Shown piece after piece: positions 1 to 6,492 of a stretch of DNA of 64,000 bases (the stretch's first letter is position 1; every line of letters begins with the position of its first letter). The notes under the pieces are model-generated. The model saw nothing but the letters and a program-made list of their open reading frames with translations, was not told the DNA's origin and searched no databases. The stretch covers positions 1,696,001 to 1,760,000 of the forward strand of contig OY969564.1 in the NCBI GenBank assembly GCA_963701095.1, in the 5' to 3' direction. The DNA comes from an uncultured Methanoregulaceae archaeon. GTDB lineage: Archaea > Halobacteriota > Methanomicrobia > Methanomicrobiales > Methanospirillaceae. Made by a program: the position numbers and the translations under genes.

Positions 1-62
1 GCGACGCTTCGACCACGCGGATACGGTACATCCTCGATAACATCGGGGTGAAAAAAGCATGA
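1..62 (+). CDS. 3' end of an upstream CDS (partial, ...DASTTRIRYILDNIGVKKA*)
   Basis: Open frame from nt 3 to TGA at 60-62, overlapping the next ATG (ATGA), typical of translational coupling. Confidence 0.55.
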   Translation, partial: DASTTRIRYILDNIGVKKA

Positions 63-1345
63 AGTTCCGTAGCTTCGGTATTGGAATCTTCATCGTATGC
101 CTGCTTCTCACGGTGCAGGTATGTAGTGCATATCCTACTGGTGATTATTCCAAAGTGCTTATCCTCCACCTTACCTTCAGCAACGGGACAATAAACGATC
201 AATCGGTAGAGATGCAGTACGGTCATCCCCCAACCCTTGGATTCCAGACCGGGAACATACGCGGCACCCTTAAAACATCCGGGGGGGTGGTTCTCCAGGA
301 GTTTGATCTCTCTGATCCAAGGTACCAGTTAAGTGATGAGGGGGTGCTCACCTACTCTGATACTGCTGATTTCACCATTGTCGTCCCCTATTACCCAGGG
401 GAGATGTCCCTTGATCTCACAGACACGAGTACTGGGACACTCCTGAAAACCGTGAATTTTTTGGGTGCCATTAATCAGTTTCAGGTAAAGTACCCGAACG
501 ATCCTGATATGGTAACAAACCCTGGCACGCAGTCTTTGGTTGCAGGGCCGCTTCCCGTTTCACAACCCGGGGCATTAGGTTCTGTCATGACCCTTTTGCA
601 GGCAACGATGTTTTCCTCCTCTGTGTTTCTTGAAGCGGCTATAACAATCTGGATTCTCCGCTGGATAACTGAAAAACGAAAACAGAAAAAGCAGGTTGTG
701 CTCATAGTCGATGATGATCCACTCATTGTTGACGCTATGGGCACATACCTAAACAAAAAGGGATATGCGACCCTTAAAGCATTCAGCGGGAAGGAATGTC
801 TCGATATCCTGAAAATCAGGATTGCCGATGTCATACTTCTTGATGTCCTCATGCAGCCGATGGATGGATGGCAGACCCTCGAACAAATAAAGAAAAATCC
901 CGTTACCCGATCAATCCCGGTGCTCATGCTGACGGGAAAAGAACTCACTGCTACTGAGGCGAAGCAATACAATCTCCAAATCGACGACTATATCATGAAA
1001 CCCTTCAAGCTGGCTGATATCTACACAGCAGTTGATAATATCCTCAAGGAAAAACAGAAAATGATGGAGACACTTCTCTTGATGAAACAGGCTGGTATAG
1101 AGAGGGAGAAGTTCTGTGAATTTGCAAGCCTCACCAGGCGCATAACTATCAACAAAAAGATACTTGAAATACTGGATGTGCCTCAGGCTTCAATTACTTC
1201 GGCGAATTTGGATGCCCTCGACGATATGCTGGTTGTGGATTATATTAACGTAAAAACGAGCATTAACGAGAAGCGCGTGGAAGAACTTCAAAATGAGATC
1301 AATACTACACTCAAATCCAAAGGGCTTCCGGAACTTTCCTGGTAA
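59..1345 (+). CDS. Membrane-anchored response regulator: signal peptide, extracellular domain, TM helix, REC domain, C-terminal helical domain
   Basis: Hydrophobic N-terminus ending VCSA; TM segment followed by KRKQKK; REC motifs VLIVDDD, DVILLDVLMQPMDG, MLTG, YIMKPF. Confidence 0.8.
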   Translation: MKFRSFGIGIFIVCLLLTVQVCSAYPTGDYSKVLILHLTFSNGTINDQSVEMQYGHPPTLGFQTGNIRGTLKTSGGVVLQEFDLSDPRYQLSDEGVLTYSDTADFTIVVPYYPGEMSLDLTDTSTGTLLKTVNFLGAINQFQVKYPNDPDMVTNPGTQSLVAGPLPVSQPGALGSVMTLLQATMFSSSVFLEAAITIWILRWITEKRKQKKQVVLIVDDDPLIVDAMGTYLNKKGYATLKAFSGKECLDILKIRIADVILLDVLMQPMDGWQTLEQIKKNPVTRSIPVLMLTGKELTATEAKQYNLQIDDYIMKPFKLADIYTAVDNILKEKQKMMETLLLMKQAGIEREKFCEFASLTRRITINKKILEILDVPQASITSANLDALDDMLVVDYINVKTSINEKRVEELQNEINTTLKSKGLPELSW

Positions 1346-1431: not shown

Positions 1432-2166
1432 TTACACTCGCTTTTTTTTATCCCAATCGAAATAGACAAGGCTTCCACCAATTAAGAGGCCTGCAAGGAC
1501 AATTAAAAGGAGGATATAAATGCTCCATCCGGCGATACTCCTGACTCCTGTACTCGCTCCAAACGCTGGTTGTACCTGAGTTCCGGATACTCCCGGCTGT
1601 TCCTGTGGGACTTGTGTAGGAGTATTTAACGGTCCCATAGGTGGTGCTAGCAATGGGCCAAGATTCGGGAACGGCGCCGGTGCTTCAACAACACCACCGT
1701 AGCTCGCGTATCCGTTACTTCTTCCTCCGTTACTTCCACCGCCGTTCGTAGTGGGTGTAGGGGTGGGAAGAGCTAATGTCTGGAATGTGGAATCGGTACT
1801 GGAGTACATATCACCCGCCAGATTGGCAGATACGAGCTGAAAGTGATATATCGTATTGGAGGACAGACCGCTCAGCGTTATTGAGTGGTTGGTCACCATG
1901 AGCGCGTCGGAACTCGCAGAACCGTAGCTGGAGGTTGTCCCGTACTCTATGGTGCTGTTTGCAGCACCGTTCGTTTGCCAGGAAAGTGTCGCGTCGCTGG
2001 TATCAATTCCGGTGACAGATATGTTGTAAATAACCAACGGGATGTTACCCGTTATCGCCACGGGACCGGAATTCTGGGCATTGGCCGGAAACGCCGTTAA
2101 AATCGTAGCTGTAAGACAAAAACAGCATATGATGAAAAAAATAAGAGATTTTTTTTTTCGGGTCAT
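1432..2166 (-). CDS. Secreted, C-terminally anchored protein with an FN3/purple-acid-phosphatase-N-like domain
   Basis: Signal peptide (..PANA); ATLSWQTN..STIEYGTT..HSITLSGLSSNTIYHFQL FN3-like pattern; PT/G/P-rich linker; C-terminal TM plus KKKRV. Confidence 0.75.
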   Translation of the reverse strand: MTRKKKSLIFFIICCFCLTATILTAFPANAQNSGPVAITGNIPLVIYNISVTGIDTSDATLSWQTNGAANSTIEYGTTSSYGSASSDALMVTNHSITLSGLSSNTIYHFQLVSANLAGDMYSSTDSTFQTLALPTPTPTTNGGGSNGGRSNGYASYGGVVEAPAPFPNLGPLLAPPMGPLNTPTQVPQEQPGVSGTQVQPAFGASTGVRSIAGWSIYILLLIVLAGLLIGGSLVYFDWDKKKRV

Positions 2167-3529
2167 TTCCGTAGCCTTGCAATGCCGCTAACAATGATAG
2201 CTGTTGCAGCGAGTGCTAAAATATTCAGTACCCGGGAACGGAAGCCTGCGTGGGTGACAAACTTGTTGGGGAGGAGACCATGACTGCCCATATACTCAGG
2301 TGGTTCGTTGTCGCTGTTAATGTCATATCCTTTGTGTTCACCTGTGTGGGCAGGACAACCCACTGACTTTGCACCACATCCCAGTATGAAAGTTTCAGCT
2401 GGGACGCGTCTCCGTTAGCAGCTGTAAGATCGTCTGAGGAATATTTTACCTTGACCGAGGCATCTTTGTTGAGCAGTCCTGACAGGCCAGTTATCTCAAA
2501 ACTGGAGGCCCCCAGTTTTGCGCCGGAAGGTGCAGGGCTGAGCTCGTCTTTTGAATACGGTCCCAGCGTGACAACCACATTACTAAGAACAGATCCTTGG
2601 GGGAATGAAACTGAATACCGTCCATCTGGCGACAGTAAGGTAGCTGAGCTGCCGGGAGTTACTGTTATACTCGATTCCGTTGCAGGAGGAATATAATTTG
2701 TCTGAACAGTGAATGTGGTTTTATTTTCATCGAGGACTTGTCCCCCCAGAAGAACTTGTGATTCTACTGAATAGGTTCCTGGCTGCAGGTTTTGCACATT
2801 GGGTTGCGCAACAAACTGAACCGTGTTTCCCGGAATAATTGCGTATACCATCGGCGTTGTTGAAACATTGGCGATAAAAGAGCCGTTTGAATCAGTCACA
2901 GTGACTTCGTTACTGGCACCGTAATAATGATAGTTACCGGTATTTTTGAATGTTGTGGTAATAGTAATTGGCTGACCGATGGTTATGGCACCTGTATCAA
3001 TCCCAAGGATACTGCCCGTTTCAAAGGGTGTCGTTCCGGTAACCGTAATGAAGACTGGCACATTAATTGCCGTCGAAAGGGATGTTCCTGGTCCTGGAAG
3101 GGAACGGATATTGATGATCGCGTACCTGCCGCCCGGACCTACATTCTGCGGGAGATTTATCGATGCCGTTATGCTCTGTGGGATACCGGGCGCCAGATGG
3201 ATTGTTGAATTATCGAGGGTGATAAAACTCCGGGCTGAATAAGGGTTTAGATCATTAACCGGATCCAATGGCATATAAATTCCATCAGGATTCTGTCCGA
3301 ATCCCTCCACTTCTGCCATCACATCAGTAGCTTGCTCATCAGCCCCAATACTTATGGTCACCATATGGGTATCCGACCCACCGGGAGCGATGCTCCCCGT
3401 GTACTTTGCACCTGACACGCCAAGTGCCGCTACCGGCGTCAGACAGAGAACCAATAGAATTACAAAGACAGAAATTGCGATCTTCGTCGATCTTAAGGAT
3501 TGTTGCGCATTTGTCATATTATACCTCAT
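2163..3529 (-). CDS. DUF916/DUF3324-like (WxL-interacting/chaperone-like) secreted protein with a ZU5/GAIN-like domain and C-terminal TM; 1-nt frameshift near 2231
   Basis: Two Ig-like domains (IHLAPG..SINLPQNVGPGGRY; FKNTGNYH..IIPG..PGTY), then a domain ending TTNHLSIWAV. Adding one base in the C-run at 2231-2233 gives ...SVPGVLNILALAATAIIVSGIARLRK*, whose stop overlaps the next ATG (2163-2166). Confidence 0.7.
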
Positions 3530-3650
3530 TTTTCGTTCTAACCACTACCAACACAACATCGGGGATTTCTGAACATGCGCTTTCATAATGAATTACGATG
3601 GGGAGGTGATATAAAATAAAAAGGTCATCGGGGTATTTAGGCGCTCGGTT

Positions 3651-4211
3651 TTATGGATACGTGAGGGTGAACGTCAGATCGATCCTATAGTTATTACCAG
3701 TTGGTAGTATTGGATCAGTATACGCAACCGGCTGGGTAAACGTATTGGGAGAGAGCAGCTGGTTGGTGACTGCTGCACTTCCTGAATAGAGAGTTGCCCC
3801 ACTGGTTATAGGGGGGGTAATAGAGTTCGTAGAGGTTGTACTGTTCGCGGTTCCGGCTAACCCTATAGGCGATGCTAAGTCTGTGAGCGGAGATAACACA
3901 TAATTACCGGCGGTCCAGTTCCCCATATATCCTTGCTTTGAAGGGCGCCCGGTATTATCTGAAACCGAAATGGTCCATGAACCTTCGTTGGCCGTAACAA
4001 TTATTCCAAGTGTTGAATTAGTTGCAGACGAACCGGGGGTCATTGGAGTCATATTTATCGCGGATTCATTCAGCGTGAGCGCAGCGTATGATGTGGGATT
4101 CCCCATAACGGCGGCGCCACCACTCGAAGTCCCTCCCGCTGAAACCGGCCCTGTTATCAACGCGAAAACAGTTGCCAGAAGTATCCCAATAACCAATATT
4201 TTTGATTTCAT
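3651..4211 (-). CDS. Small secreted WxL-like protein (putative fibre/shaft subunit)
   Basis: Signal peptide (..PVSA); internal GSWTISVSD and terminal YRIDLTFTLTYP resemble the two WxL-domain motifs (GWxLxV; YxxxLTWTL..P). Confidence 0.65.
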   Translation of the reverse strand: MKSKILVIGILLATVFALITGPVSAGGTSSGGAAVMGNPTSYAALTLNESAINMTPMTPGSSATNSTLGIIVTANEGSWTISVSDNTGRPSKQGYMGNWTAGNYVLSPLTDLASPIGLAGTANSTTSTNSITPPITSGATLYSGSAAVTNQLLSPNTFTQPVAYTDPILPTGNNYRIDLTFTLTYP

Positions 4212-4235
4212 GTGCTAAAATGCGCGGAATTACTT

Positions 4236-4243
4236 TATATAAA
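4236..4243 (-). promoter_or_regulatory. Archaeal TATA box for the small WxL-like gene
   Basis: TTTATATA on the minus strand 25 nt upstream of the ATG at 4211, implying a nearly leaderless transcript. Confidence 0.6.
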
Positions 4244-4287
4244 TTTAGGTGAAAATAAGGCCCCGGCTTCTTTTAAAGGACTCGACC

Positions 4288-6492
4288 TTATGGATACGTG
4301 AGTGTGAACGTTAGATCTATTCTATAGGTATCGGGATTTGGCAGGATTGGATCGGCATATGCCACCGGTTGTGTGAAAATATTGGGAGTGAGAAGCTGGT
4401 TAGTGACTGCCCCACTACCTGAATAGAGAAGTGACCCACTGTATATGGGTGTAGTCGCATTCTGCCCGGTTGTTACACTCCCTGTACTGTTCGTGGTTCC
4501 GGCTAATTGAAGAGGTGAAGATAACGTCGTATTCAGGGGGTACGTGAAATAAATACCGGCGCTGTAGTTTCCTAAATAACCTTTCCTGGAAGTGCGCCCG
4601 GTATTATCGGAAATTGAAATGGTCCATCCGCCTTCGTTGGCTGTGACTGTTATTCCAAGTGATCCATTCGTTGCAGACAGTCCCGGGGTCATGGGGTTCA
4701 GGAGTATCGTGGATTCATTCAAAATGAGCGCGGCATATGCATTGCTCGTGATATAATTCAATTGTGTTGTACTATTGGAATAATAGGGGTTGGAAGCCGA
4801 TTCGGTGACGTAAAAAGTACCTTCTGAACTATACACGTGAGTGGCGTTAAACGTATATATTGTTGAAGTGTTCGTAAATTGTCCATCACCCCATGTCCAG
4901 TTAACCCAGGTTGCATTATTGTTTACAGAAGTTAGGTTGAACTGGACAGTGAACGGAAATATTCCCGAAGTTGGGGTTCCTGTGAACCCGGAAACCGTTT
5001 GATGGTAAAGTTGTACGTATCCGATTTTAGAGCTAGACCCGTAGACGTTTGCGACTTTCCATGTAACGGTATAATTGCTTCCGCCTGAATAGGTATGTGT
5101 AATATTTGTTGCTGGAAAAGTAGTTGCGTTATACCATCCGCCATCCCCAAATGAAACATTCCATTGTGTCGGAGAATTTGTTGAGGTATCATTGAACATA
5201 ACAATCAAAGGATCGACGCCGGATGTAACATTTGCAATAAAATTTGCAACAGGGATTGACCCAGCAGTAACATTAATAAACGTGGCATTTTTGAATGTGT
5301 TTGATCCACCGAGATTCTTTTCAGTCAAATTTACGGAATAATTACCAATGCCAAATGTCCATACCGGGTTTTGCGTGGTGGCAAAATTCGTCCACGTATT
5401 GTTTCCCGTAACATTATTAAATCCCCATTGAAAAGCGGTTCCTGCGGGATTCGATGTATCGTTAAAACTAACTGCTAGTGGTGAAAATCCGGAAGTTACA
5501 TTCATGGTAAACGATACGACAGGCAACTTCGTGTAACTGACAATAATTACCCCGGAAGCTCCACTGCCTCCTGCTGTTGTATTCTCATAACCGCCACCAC
5601 CACCGCCACTCCCTGTCGATGCGGTAGCTGCGGTTGGAAAGGTTGTGTTGGTTCCGCCAGTGCCACCAATAACCGAACCCCCGGCTCCCGCAGTCGTGTT
5701 TCCGCCTCCGCCCCCACCGGCACCGTAAAAGATTGCTGATCCTGTGATGCTGTTACTCACCCCGGCCCCACCTGCTCCACCAGCAGTTGTAGTTCCTGTC
5801 CCTCCTTTTGCGCCGGCTCCCCCGCCACCCCCGGCGCCAAAACGCGTGACTCCAGAAGCGGTCCCGCCGGCAAATCCATACGCGGTTCCGCCACCCGAGC
5901 TTCCTAAACTTGCCTGGGTAGTAGCCCCTCCAGCACCGCCGTGTGTTCCACCGCCTCCTGAACCACCAGAACCTCCCGCTGTTGAACTTGTTGCTGATGC
6001 GCCCCAACCACCACCTATCGTGAGGATCGTATTGAACGAAGAGTTCATGCCATTTACACCATGGGATGCATTGGCTGCTCCCCCGGTACCTCCGCTACCT
6101 ACAAAAAGATTGAGAAGACTTCCGCCGGTGACCGCATAAGATACTGCATAGACAGCCCCCCCGCCACCGCCACCGCCACCACAGGTGGCGGACGCATTAC
6201 TGCTGCCGCCTCCACTAGCACCCCCGGCTACAACGAGAACGGATAGATTGGAAAGCCCGGTAGGTACTGTCCACGAAGATGATCCCGTGGCATTCCACAT
6301 AATGAGATTTTGATTGCCGTTGGTTGCTGTCCAGCACCCATTGGCTGATGTCCACGTAACTGCGCTCACCGACTGGACACAAACCGTAAAAAGACAACCT
6401 GCCAGAAAAATCCAGATCGCGAGGGTCGCAATTAAGTTACCTTCCAAACTTTTTCGGGCGTTTATTTTTGTTTTCAGGTTAGTCTTTCTCAT
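4288..6492 (-). CDS. Large secreted protein: glycine-rich domain, 3 PKD domains, C-terminal WxL-like domain (putative adhesin)
   Basis: Signal peptide (..SVSA); VLVVAGG..GGGGGG Gly-rich domain; PKD repeats (PLAVSFNDTS, PLIVMFNDTS..WNVSFGDG, WTWGDG); last ~150 aa paralogous to 3651-4088; many N-x-S/T sequons. Confidence 0.8.
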   Translation of the reverse strand: MRKTNLKTKINARKSLEGNLIATLAIWIFLAGCLFTVCVQSVSAVTWTSANGCWTATNGNQNLIMWNATGSSSWTVPTGLSNLSVLVVAGGASGGGSSNASATCGGGGGGGGAVYAVSYAVTGGSLLNLFVGSGGTGGAANASHGVNGMNSSFNTILTIGGGWGASATSSTAGGSGGSGGGGTHGGAGGATTQASLGSSGGGTAYGFAGGTASGVTRFGAGGGGGAGAKGGTGTTTAGGAGGAGVSNSITGSAIFYGAGGGGGGNTTAGAGGSVIGGTGGTNTTFPTAATASTGSGGGGGGYENTTAGGSGASGVIIVSYTKLPVVSFTMNVTSGFSPLAVSFNDTSNPAGTAFQWGFNNVTGNNTWTNFATTQNPVWTFGIGNYSVNLTEKNLGGSNTFKNATFINVTAGSIPVANFIANVTSGVDPLIVMFNDTSTNSPTQWNVSFGDGGWYNATTFPATNITHTYSGGSNYTVTWKVANVYGSSSKIGYVQLYHQTVSGFTGTPTSGIFPFTVQFNLTSVNNNATWVNWTWGDGQFTNTSTIYTFNATHVYSSEGTFYVTESASNPYYSNSTTQLNYITSNAYAALILNESTILLNPMTPGLSATNGSLGITVTANEGGWTISISDNTGRTSRKGYLGNYSAGIYFTYPLNTTLSSPLQLAGTTNSTGSVTTGQNATTPIYSGSLLYSGSGAVTNQLLTPNIFTQPVAYADPILPNPDTYRIDLTFTLTYP

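Follow-up and report, generated by a model that had tools for sequence, protein, structure and literature searches.

The 64,000-nucleotide stretch analysed here, referred to as the window, belongs to an uncultured Methanoregulaceae archaeon (contig OY969564.1, positions 1,696,001 to 1,760,000, assembly GCA_963701095.1). Its open reading frames (ORFs) include four genes arranged head to tail on the minus strand at window positions 1432-6492. They code for a large protein of 734 residues, a small protein of 186 residues, a membrane-anchored chaperone candidate and a protein of 244 residues with a fibronectin type III (FN3) domain. The reading favoured here, to which somewhat better than an even chance is given, is that they specify the tip, the shaft, the chaperone and the anchor of a donor-strand pilus that is assembled under the guidance of a chaperone and would be the counterpart, in an archaeon, of the WxL/Elr system. 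A sequence-only reading of the same DNA had proposed the order tip, shaft and anchor from a motif common to two of the N-termini. That order is supported in unequal ways: the shaft contact could be modelled, and the two ends are suggested by conservation and by the parallel with the Elr/WxL pilus.

The small protein (3651-4211, minus strand) is the candidate shaft subunit and consists of a signal peptide, an N-terminal donor strand and a pilin-like domain. An exhaustive HMMER search for its family returned 136 representative proteins at E <= 1e-3 and 72 at E <= 1e-10. Among the 141 family proteins collected, 97 are stand-alone forms of 160-220 residues. The alignment used for modelling, A2, contains 85 stand-alone small proteins, fragments, fused forms and forms devoid of the N-terminal segment having been left out. 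When three copies of the mature protein were modelled together with A2, the interfaces obtained interaction prediction scores from aligned errors (ipSAE) of 0.63, 0.62 and 0.66, against 0.11 for the best of three controls. The runs had at least 98% of their contacts in common, the predicted local distance difference test score (pLDDT) of the partners was at least 88, and the verdict was 'supports binding'. In the calibration of the complex score, which used two copies and not three, the mark was reached by 20 of 30 solved pairs versus 1 of 23 single-chain proteins.

In this model, residues 1-17 of one copy contact residues 16, 18-22, 24-34, 133-144 and 149-161 of the next, and the segment slots in between two strands of its neighbour, the first (18-22) and the last (150-159). 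The last strand corresponds to Y175-T184 (YRIDLTFTLT) in full-length numbering. The tightest contact pairs (12:150, 9:153, 7:155, 6:156 and 3:159) sum to about 162, and the N-terminal segment therefore runs antiparallel to this last strand. Donor residue 6 also contacts residue 22 of the first strand. The even-numbered donor residues 6, 10, 12 and 14 reach deeper, to residue 22, to residue 133, to residues 29, 32 and 71, and to residues 137 and 141, respectively, whereas odd-numbered residues contact the neighbouring strand only. The conserved positions of the motif are those that face the groove. The modelling thus supports a shaft in which the small protein would polymerise through an N-terminal strand given in trans. 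The sequence-only reading had made the small protein the shaft, both donor and acceptor, and had expected its peptide to complete the sheet of a neighbour; both expectations hold in the three-copy model, which passes its controls. The predicted donor strand, delimited by the modelled interface and by column conservation, occupies window positions 4086-4136 (minus strand).

The fold of the small protein is in keeping with this assembly. The AlphaFold2 monomer model computed from A2 is confident and all-beta (mean pLDDT 95.9, predicted template modelling score 0.87) and forms a beta-sandwich. No Pfam or NCBIfam family matched the small protein, and this includes TasA/camelysin (Peptidase_M73). 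Pfam searches on the 85 relatives yielded scattered weak matches only, the commonest being DUF2574 in 4 of the 85, and the family profiles of the small protein and of the chaperone retrieved nothing usable from the PDB sequences (best E 0.15 and 1.9). By structure, Foldseek returned no match at E <= 0.001 for the pilin model, its best rows being almost all chaperone-usher pilins. A wider structural aligner was run against 48,161 representative chains, and seven of its eight top matches were donor-strand fibre subunits. The matches comprised the CfaE part of a CfaE-CfaB fusion (3f83_A, Z 8.5, 138 residues aligned, root-mean-square deviation (rmsd) 3.7), CfaE itself (2hb0_A, Z 8.3, 138 aligned), CsuA/B (7zl4_A, Z 8.1, 118 aligned), TLP-1b (9ikk_A, Z 8.0, 150 aligned), the Pyrodictium cannulae (9h8b, Z 7.6, 134 aligned), CupE (8cio, Z 7.4, 139 aligned) and the FimH pilin domain (1ze3_H, Z 7.2, 117 aligned). 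When the top 1,000 Foldseek rows were aligned a second time, donor-strand fibre subunits made up 45 of the 50 among the matches listed. These matches, obtained with a predicted model, are taken as likeness of fold and not as family membership.

The motif from which the whole proposal originated is SGGAAVMGNP in the small protein (mature residues 5-14; 4095-4124, minus strand) and SGPVAITGNIP in the FN3 protein, ahead of the FN3 domain (2038-2070, minus strand). Both peptides translate exactly as had been given, and each lies just behind a signal peptide. The earlier reading had made conservation in homologues a test of the idea, and the motif is indeed conserved. In A2, signal peptides end in ...PV[SM]A and are followed by a short stretch rich in Thr, Ser and Gly and then by the motif. 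Over the 85 sequences, mature position 10 is I in 35, V in 31 and L in 16, position 11 is T in 46 and S in 10, position 12 is G in 78 and A in 5, position 13 is N in 59, and position 14 is P in 50 and V, I or L in 25, which gives the core consensus [IVL]-[TS]-G-N-P. The anchor family was represented by the window FN3 protein and 23 orthologues from related loci, 24 sequences in all; a fragment (L052 9365-9955) that aligns from residue 72 only was left out. Here position 8 is V in 14, I in 3 and M in 3, position 10 is I in 23 and V in 1, position 11 is T in 16 and S in 6, position 12 is G in 14 and A in 10, position 14 is V in 10, I in 9, L in 2 and M in 1, and position 16 is L in 20. The anchor consensus, I-[TS]-[GA]-x-[VIL], is conserved at its core positions in 24 of 24 sequences, and the core common to pilin and anchor strands reads [IVL]-[TS]-[GA]-x-[PVIL].

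The likeness between the two families was also measured against the genomic background. With a matrix built from pilin positions 4-13, the window FN3 protein ranks third among the 5,108 ORFs of at least 100 residues in its own genome. With a hidden Markov model (HMM) of 16 positions it ranks fourth among 11,405 ORFs of at least 60 residues, the match falling at residues 33-44. Of the 23 anchor orthologues, 14 have matrix scores within the highest 1% of the genome background and 19 within the highest 5%. Judged from these comparisons, the resemblance between pilin and anchor strands at family level is real and in excess of chance, in the form of a strand pattern rather than a strong sequence signature.

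The large protein (4288-6492, minus strand) is the candidate tip adhesin. It carries a signal peptide and Gly-rich and PKD regions (Pfam Gly_rich_2, PF21722, E 2.7e-20; PKD_4; PKD) and ends in a pilin-like acceptor domain, residues 585-734, that reaches its C-terminus (4291-4740, minus strand). This domain is 68% identical to residues 41-186 of the small protein (E 4e-60). Since the alignment begins at small-protein residue 41, the domain of the large protein starts right behind the position of the motif, and when the large protein was aligned to the small-protein family with hmmalign its motif columns remained empty. The absence of the strand next to the shared domain, as first noticed from the sequence, is therefore confirmed. 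In longer relatives, too, the domain stops no more than about 3 residues short of the C-terminus (e.g. residues 569-719 in a protein of 719 and 892-1053 in one of 1055). A variable N-terminal payload, a C-terminal pilin domain and no donor strand constitute the layout of a tip adhesin, and the large protein shows all three. By this layout and by analogy with the Elr/WxL pilus, the large protein would be the fibre tip.

Acceptor-only relatives are of two kinds, either large proteins with a C-terminal domain or a small 'class B' paralogue whose mature N-terminus runs directly into the first strand of the domain (e.g. ...SA|ATIDISV). Such a strand-less second small pilin is found in many Methanoregula loci (L018 7285-7824 (-), L028, L029, L031, L032, L034, L037, L039 and L052). 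Class B loci lack a large adhesin, and the strand-less paralogue may therefore be a minimal fibre cap. As far as the sequences go, the pairing of a strand-bearing and a strand-less protein in one locus fits a polymer with a cap.

The third gene codes for a protein of 434 residues as it stands in the window (ORF 2225-3529, minus strand). It has at least 301 close relatives, all labelled hypothetical, and 62 of them form the alignment A3 used for modelling. The AlphaFold2 model contains three beta domains (pLDDT 87.9). Its best Foldseek match is the WxL-interacting protein of Enterococcus faecium (9i1y_B, E 1.6e-10), followed by a complex of this protein with a long WxL protein (9i25_C, E 1.9e-10). 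Pilus chaperones were also retrieved, CsuC at 5.9e-8 and CfaA at 7.5e-8, together with CupB2, FaeE and FimC. With the wide aligner, 9i1y_A reached Z 17.0 over 239 aligned residues (rmsd 5.6, model residues 1-269) and leads the next row, a match to one domain only, by 3 Z units. The two-domain pilus chaperones come lower, with CupB2 at Z 11.5, YadV at 11.4, FimC at 10.9, CsuC at 10.8 and SafB at 10.6. The third domain, residues 246-385 (window about 2264-2683), is ZU5-like (3ud1_A, Z 12.8); it is missing from shorter homologues of about 330-350 residues, which align to positions 1 to about 285 only.

At the level of sequence the connection is weak yet consistent: PF06030 (DUF916, WxLIP_PGBD) gave sub-threshold matches in 45 of the 62 relatives (best E 4.7e-4) and PF11797 (DUF3324) in 4 of 62. 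In the four PF06030-matching members that were checked, profile positions 62-111 correspond to protein residues about 82-159, a region that takes in the most conserved strand of the family, GGRYAII, the candidate for its groove-filling strand (mature residues about 94-104). The window protein itself matched no Pfam family above threshold and gave no PF06030 match, PapD_N (PF00345) was absent among the Pfam matches listed for the relatives, and the ESM Atlas offered no named family. The structural models support structural homology of the 434-residue protein to the WxL-interacting protein and to pilus chaperones, and they suggest that it acts as a chaperone.

The chaperone gene is truncated by an error in the assembly. 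Orthologues measure 440-490 residues, and of the 35 ORFs with 400 residues or more, 31 carry a transmembrane-like tail. The window copy ends early. Its tail, a hydrophobic helix and then RLRK, is found in a different reading frame, in the ORF 2163-2363. In two runs (X1 and X3), which may be the source of this very DNA, the short-read contigs have one extra C after position 2230, in a C/G run, at depths of 13.9 of 13.9 and 15.4 of 15.4, respectively. The frameshift at 2230 is therefore a one-base deletion in the assembly, and the real gene continues into the transmembrane helix and ends at 2163, spanning 2163-3529 (minus strand). The corrected stop overlaps the start of the FN3 gene by 4 bases (2163-2166), and the same overlap occurs in locus L019. 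The genome is a single contig and yet only 86% complete by marker genes, and other homopolymer errors are therefore likely.

The FN3 protein (1432-2166, minus strand) is composed of a signal peptide, the N-terminal strand, the FN3 domain (Pfam fn3 and Pur_ac_phosph_N), a Pro/Gly-rich linker and a transmembrane helix (1459-1536, minus strand), recognised in the translation as a hydrophobic run, with a KKKRV tail. No LPxTG occurs in its translation. Orthologues have similar tails and lie directly downstream of the chaperone gene in 23 of 51 related loci. Its role as a donor-only terminator and membrane anchor is suggested by the conservation of the strand and by the parallel with Elr/WxL.

These 51 loci were fetched after one genome per species had been scanned with the chaperone alignment. 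By record name they comprise 23 Methanoregula sp., 7 Methanoregulaceae, 9 Methanomicrobiales, 1 Methanomicrobia, 1 Methanobacteriota, 2 Methanolinea, 2 Methanomicrobiaceae, 1 Methanosarcinaceae, 4 Methanotrichaceae or Methanothrix, 1 Methanocella and 2 contigs labelled Dehalococcoidia, with 49 methanogen records in all. One gene order recurs on one strand, from pilin or pilins through chaperone to FN3 anchor. According to a heuristic that misfiles at least one strand-less paralogue (L054), a strand-bearing small pilin is present in 38 of the 51 loci, an acceptor-only protein with a pilin domain in 29, both in 25 and the anchor in 23. No pilin ORF was found in 9 loci, at least 2 of which are cut at a contig end. 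The chaperone is the most conserved gene of the locus and adjoins pilins in 42 of the 51. It is also the better marker: when the order was searched with the small pilin as a single protein, just 7 of 201 genomes gave a match, and the chaperone profile detected 79 of 401 sampled genomes of the class, 49 of 215 high-quality genomes and 16 of 45 genera. Two or three chaperone matches occur in several genomes; L024 has two tandem pilin-chaperone pairs, and L066 and L071 have several pilins and two chaperones. L020 (8372-9559 (-)) and L021 (3474-4727 (-)) are fusions in which another kind of N-terminal domain precedes the pilin domain. Chaperone and pilin homologues are both present on the two Dehalococcoidia-labelled contigs, L043 and L067. 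Either these contigs may have been binned wrongly, or the family may extend beyond Archaea. Look-alike clusters in the ESM Atlas are mostly bacterial (Acidobacteriota, Gemmatimonadota, Saccharimonadota and Chloroflexota).

Taken together, the four proteins suggest the following assembly path. All would be exported through Sec signal peptides. The chaperone would hold newly exported pilin domains by filling their open groove. The large protein, with an open groove and no donor strand, would start the fibre as its distal adhesin, and copies of the small protein would add one after another as the shaft. The FN3 protein, with a look-alike strand and no pilin domain, would fill the last groove and, by way of its linker and transmembrane helix, fasten the fibre to the membrane. 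Neither an usher nor a sortase would be involved.

The closest known parallel is the Elr/WxL pilus encoded by the elrABCDE operon of Enterococcus faecalis (preprint of October 2026, bioRxiv 10.64898/2026.10.17.759780). ElrD is a small WxL protein that forms a donor-strand-exchange fibre, its mature residues 1-15 running antiparallel to strand F. ElrE is a DUF916/DUF3324 protein with a C-terminal helix that serves as a membrane-anchored chaperone, and its Foldseek matches are CsuC, CfaA, Caf1M and EcpB. ElrA, large and with a C-terminal WxL domain, lacks a donor strand and was modelled as the tip, and ElrB, modelled as the base, combines a donor strand with an LPxTG signal and has no acceptor domain (bioRxiv 10.64898/2026.10.17.759780). 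The window locus shows the same four proposed roles: its large adhesin candidate ends in the pilin domain and lacks a donor strand, its small pilin would form the shaft, its base candidate is small and donor-only, and its chaperone candidate, which has the WxL-interacting protein as its best structural match, combines a two-domain core with a C-terminal transmembrane helix. It differs by its archaeal host, by the absence of any Pfam WxL, DUF916 or DUF3324 match at threshold, by the donor consensus ([IVL]10-[TS]-G12-N-P14 here versus [S/T]8-x-[G/A]10-x-[V/I]12-x-F14 in Elr), by a base protein with an FN3 domain and a plain transmembrane anchor in place of LPxTG and sortase, and by the extra third domain of the chaperone. 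A conserved Trp or Trp-x-Leu pair is absent from the small-family consensus. The only WxL lead for the pilin is its nearest named ESM Atlas cluster, which is 60% WxL (score 0.94, 181 shared features).

Chaperone-usher pili (Csu, CFA/I, type 1 and P) resemble the proposed window system in having an incomplete immunoglobulin (Ig)-like pilin that is completed by the N-terminal strand of the next subunit, a two-domain tip adhesin with a C-terminal pilin domain (CfaE being the top fold match, Z 8.5-9.1) and a two-domain chaperone fold (CsuC, CfaA, FimC and CupB2). Pap and Fim donor strands contain a conserved glycine, and the window pilin likewise has a small residue in the middle of its donor strand. 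The window system differs in that there is no outer membrane or periplasm, the chaperone would be membrane-tethered and not soluble, and the proteins have no detectable sequence similarity to their chaperone-usher counterparts. A search of the window's genome (86% complete) gave no match to the usher PF00577 at E <= 1, whereas the usher was detected in the E. coli control. The sequence-only reading had invoked chaperone-usher pili and TasA fibres side by side and had left out the chaperone gene (2163-3529, the 434-residue ORF plus its tail). With a membrane-anchored chaperone present, the system would be chaperone-guided and therefore nearer to chaperone-usher and WxL pili than to TasA fibres.

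Several other filaments share one or another of these features. Sulfolobus threads, Pyrobaculum bundling pili, Pyrodictium cannulae and haloarchaeal Tat-fimbriae are archaeal and built of Ig-like or jelly-roll-like subunits joined by strand donation, and the sources describe their assembly as proceeding without a chaperone; the window pilin, by contrast, has a conserved chaperone-like neighbour gene. Cannulae and bundling pili are among the fold matches of the pilin, the bundling pilus 7ueg at Z 6.4 only (rmsd 10.6). The Tsinghua Lotus Pond fibrils TLP-1a/b, found by CryoSeek in an environmental sample and of unknown origin, also assemble by donor-strand exchange (PMC11494351). They match the pilin fold at Z 8.0-8.4 over 146-150 residues with about 10% identity, and their donor comes from protomer n+4 of a tubule (PMC11494351), against the linear n+1 arrangement modelled here. 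In the Pam pili of bacteria of the Candidate Phyla Radiation, a possible parallel, the pilins are Ig-like and exchange donor strands, and the operon contains putative chaperones (PMC13278184); for the window pilin the structure search of the ESM Atlas lists an unnamed Saccharimonadota cluster (template modelling score 0.65). No description of an archaeal version was found in the literature searched, most subscription journals lying outside that search and the supplements of the Elr preprint possibly listing sub-threshold matches.

A number of results weigh against the proposed pilus, and they fall on different parts of it. One part concerns homology to the WxL system, to which no link was found in the sequences. 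PF06030 scores in the chaperone family all lie under the curated cut-off (13-15 bits versus 27.3), and the chaperone-family profile finds no solved relative by sequence. PF13731 (WxL) was found at E <= 1 neither in the 85 small-family members nor in a six-frame search of the genome (86% complete), and the solved WxL chain of 9i25 is absent among the matches listed (top 50) for the pilin fold. No Pfam model reaches its threshold, and the locus is therefore not a member by the criteria of the preprint, whose screen of 4,698 genera with Pfam gathering thresholds found the system in Bacillota only, with a small Actinomycetota satellite among the chaperones (bioRxiv 10.64898/2026.10.17.759780). That the locus is nonetheless a true but highly diverged WxL/Elr homologue, present in the Methanoregula group, Methanolinea, Methanothrix, Methanocella and Methanosarcinaceae and ending in a sortase-free membrane terminator that plugs the groove, is put forward tentatively, its chances being judged a little under even.

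The fibre and its chaperone can each be called into question. It could be argued that the proteins form a static surface complex or act singly and that the motif is a cis element, such as the first strand of each fold or the context of the signal peptidase site. The AlphaFold2 monomer is confident throughout, including its N-terminus (mean pLDDT 82 for residues 1-10 and 97 for residues 11-20), where it has no strand, and the Z values of the pilin are middling, 8-9 being within the range common for models without a true match (the aligner's own warning is set at Z 7-8). The complex score is a measure of model confidence and may draw on likeness to solved donor-strand fibres. WxL proteins themselves were long read as wall-binding modules rather than pilins (PMC10599100, PMC9772566). 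Against this, the three-copy model puts the strand in trans with a large margin over its controls, the clean split between strand-bearing and strand-less proteins within one locus suits a capped polymer and not a cis element, and the acceptor domain always ends at the C-terminus, as in chaperone-usher and WxL subunits; a locus that builds no fibre is accordingly judged very improbable. Nearly as hard to sustain, though given a slightly better chance, is a fibre that assembles by itself like archaeal threads, bundling pili, cannulae and Tat-fimbriae, with the 434-residue protein as an adhesin or an anchor. The archaeal donor-strand filaments cited in the Discussion of the Elr preprint, Tat-dependent pili, assemble without a chaperone or an usher (bioRxiv 10.64898/2026.10.17.759780), 9h8b (Z 7.6) and 7ueg (Z 6.4) are among the fold matches, and the ZU5-like third domain (Z 12.8) is lacking in pilus chaperones. 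The two-domain core nevertheless reaches Z 17.0 to the WxL-interacting protein and 10.6-11.5 to pilus chaperones over 173-187 residues, its gene is the most conserved of the locus and stands beside pilins in the great majority of loci, and a transmembrane tail is found in nearly all full-size copies, as in 96.7% of WxL chaperones (bioRxiv 10.64898/2026.10.17.759780).

More credit, while still on the unlikely side, is due to an alternative that keeps both pilus and chaperone and removes the terminator: the fibre would be held at its base by the membrane-anchored chaperone, and the FN3 protein, co-expressed but independent of the fibre, would be a surface protein whose strand resemblance is convergent or due to chance. 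The anchor was found in only 23 of the 51 loci and is missing in 28. Compared alone, the two window peptides do not match significantly (BLASTP E 0.22), and the pilin-strand HMM gives the FN3 orthologues of three relatives just 2.1-3.0 bits. The best matrix window falls at the post-signal-peptide site in 16 of the 23 orthologues and elsewhere in 7, and only 10 of the 14 top-1% matches lie at that site. N13 and P14 of the pilin are not kept in the anchors, N occurring in 7 of 24 anchors and P in 12, where it stands one position further on. Moreover, the top matrix match in the genome is an unrelated surface protein, G000:C1:756966-757934 (-), with a stretch ...TITGNIG..., which indicates that such motifs arise by chance and that the motif alone is therefore not specific; this protein is a stand-alone paralogue of the N-terminal domain that is fused ahead of the pilin domain in some loci. 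What speaks for a terminator is that the FN3 gene lies directly downstream of the chaperone gene with overlapping stop and start codons, that the strand core is conserved throughout the anchor family, that the window protein ranks third in its genome with the matrix, that the conserved positions 8, 10, 12 and 14 are groove-facing in the modelled pilin strand, and that ElrB provides a direct precedent for a donor-only base subunit. The chaperone-guided pilus with the FN3 protein as its terminator thus remains the preferred reading.

Two observations concern the surroundings and the expression of the locus. A divergent gene at 59-1345 (+) codes for a membrane protein with an extracellular N-terminal part and a receiver domain (PF00072, E 7.8e-24), and it also weakly matches methanogen output domain 2. 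A regulatory link to the pilus locus was considered and dropped; full-length homologues occur near 3 of the 51 related loci only (L038, L042 and L054), and such a link is therefore doubtful. Identical contigs of 326 bases, covering 3825-4150 inside the small-pilin gene, were recovered from two metatranscriptome runs of different studies (X6, plant; X7, moss). They are of equal length and depth and may therefore be one data set filed twice, and an RNA library can contain DNA too. These contigs are the sole coverage in the 5.1-kb stretch, the uncovered remainder being uninformative, and they give a weak hint that the shaft gene may be the most abundant transcript of the locus.

The chaperone-assisted donor-strand design has so far been demonstrated only in bacteria. 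If the locus is a true, strongly diverged homologue of the WxL/Elr pilus, it would encode the first archaeal pilus to be assembled by chaperone-dependent donor-strand exchange. This mode of assembly would then occur in both prokaryotic domains, being either of ancient origin or passed on between Bacillota and methanogens, and its apparent confinement to Bacillota would have been produced by the Pfam thresholds. The locus would offer a natural case of a transmembrane protein replacing sortase or usher as the end point of a fibre. It would also give the surface biology of methanogens, such as the Methanoregula of peat, sediment and digesters, a testable adhesion fibre.

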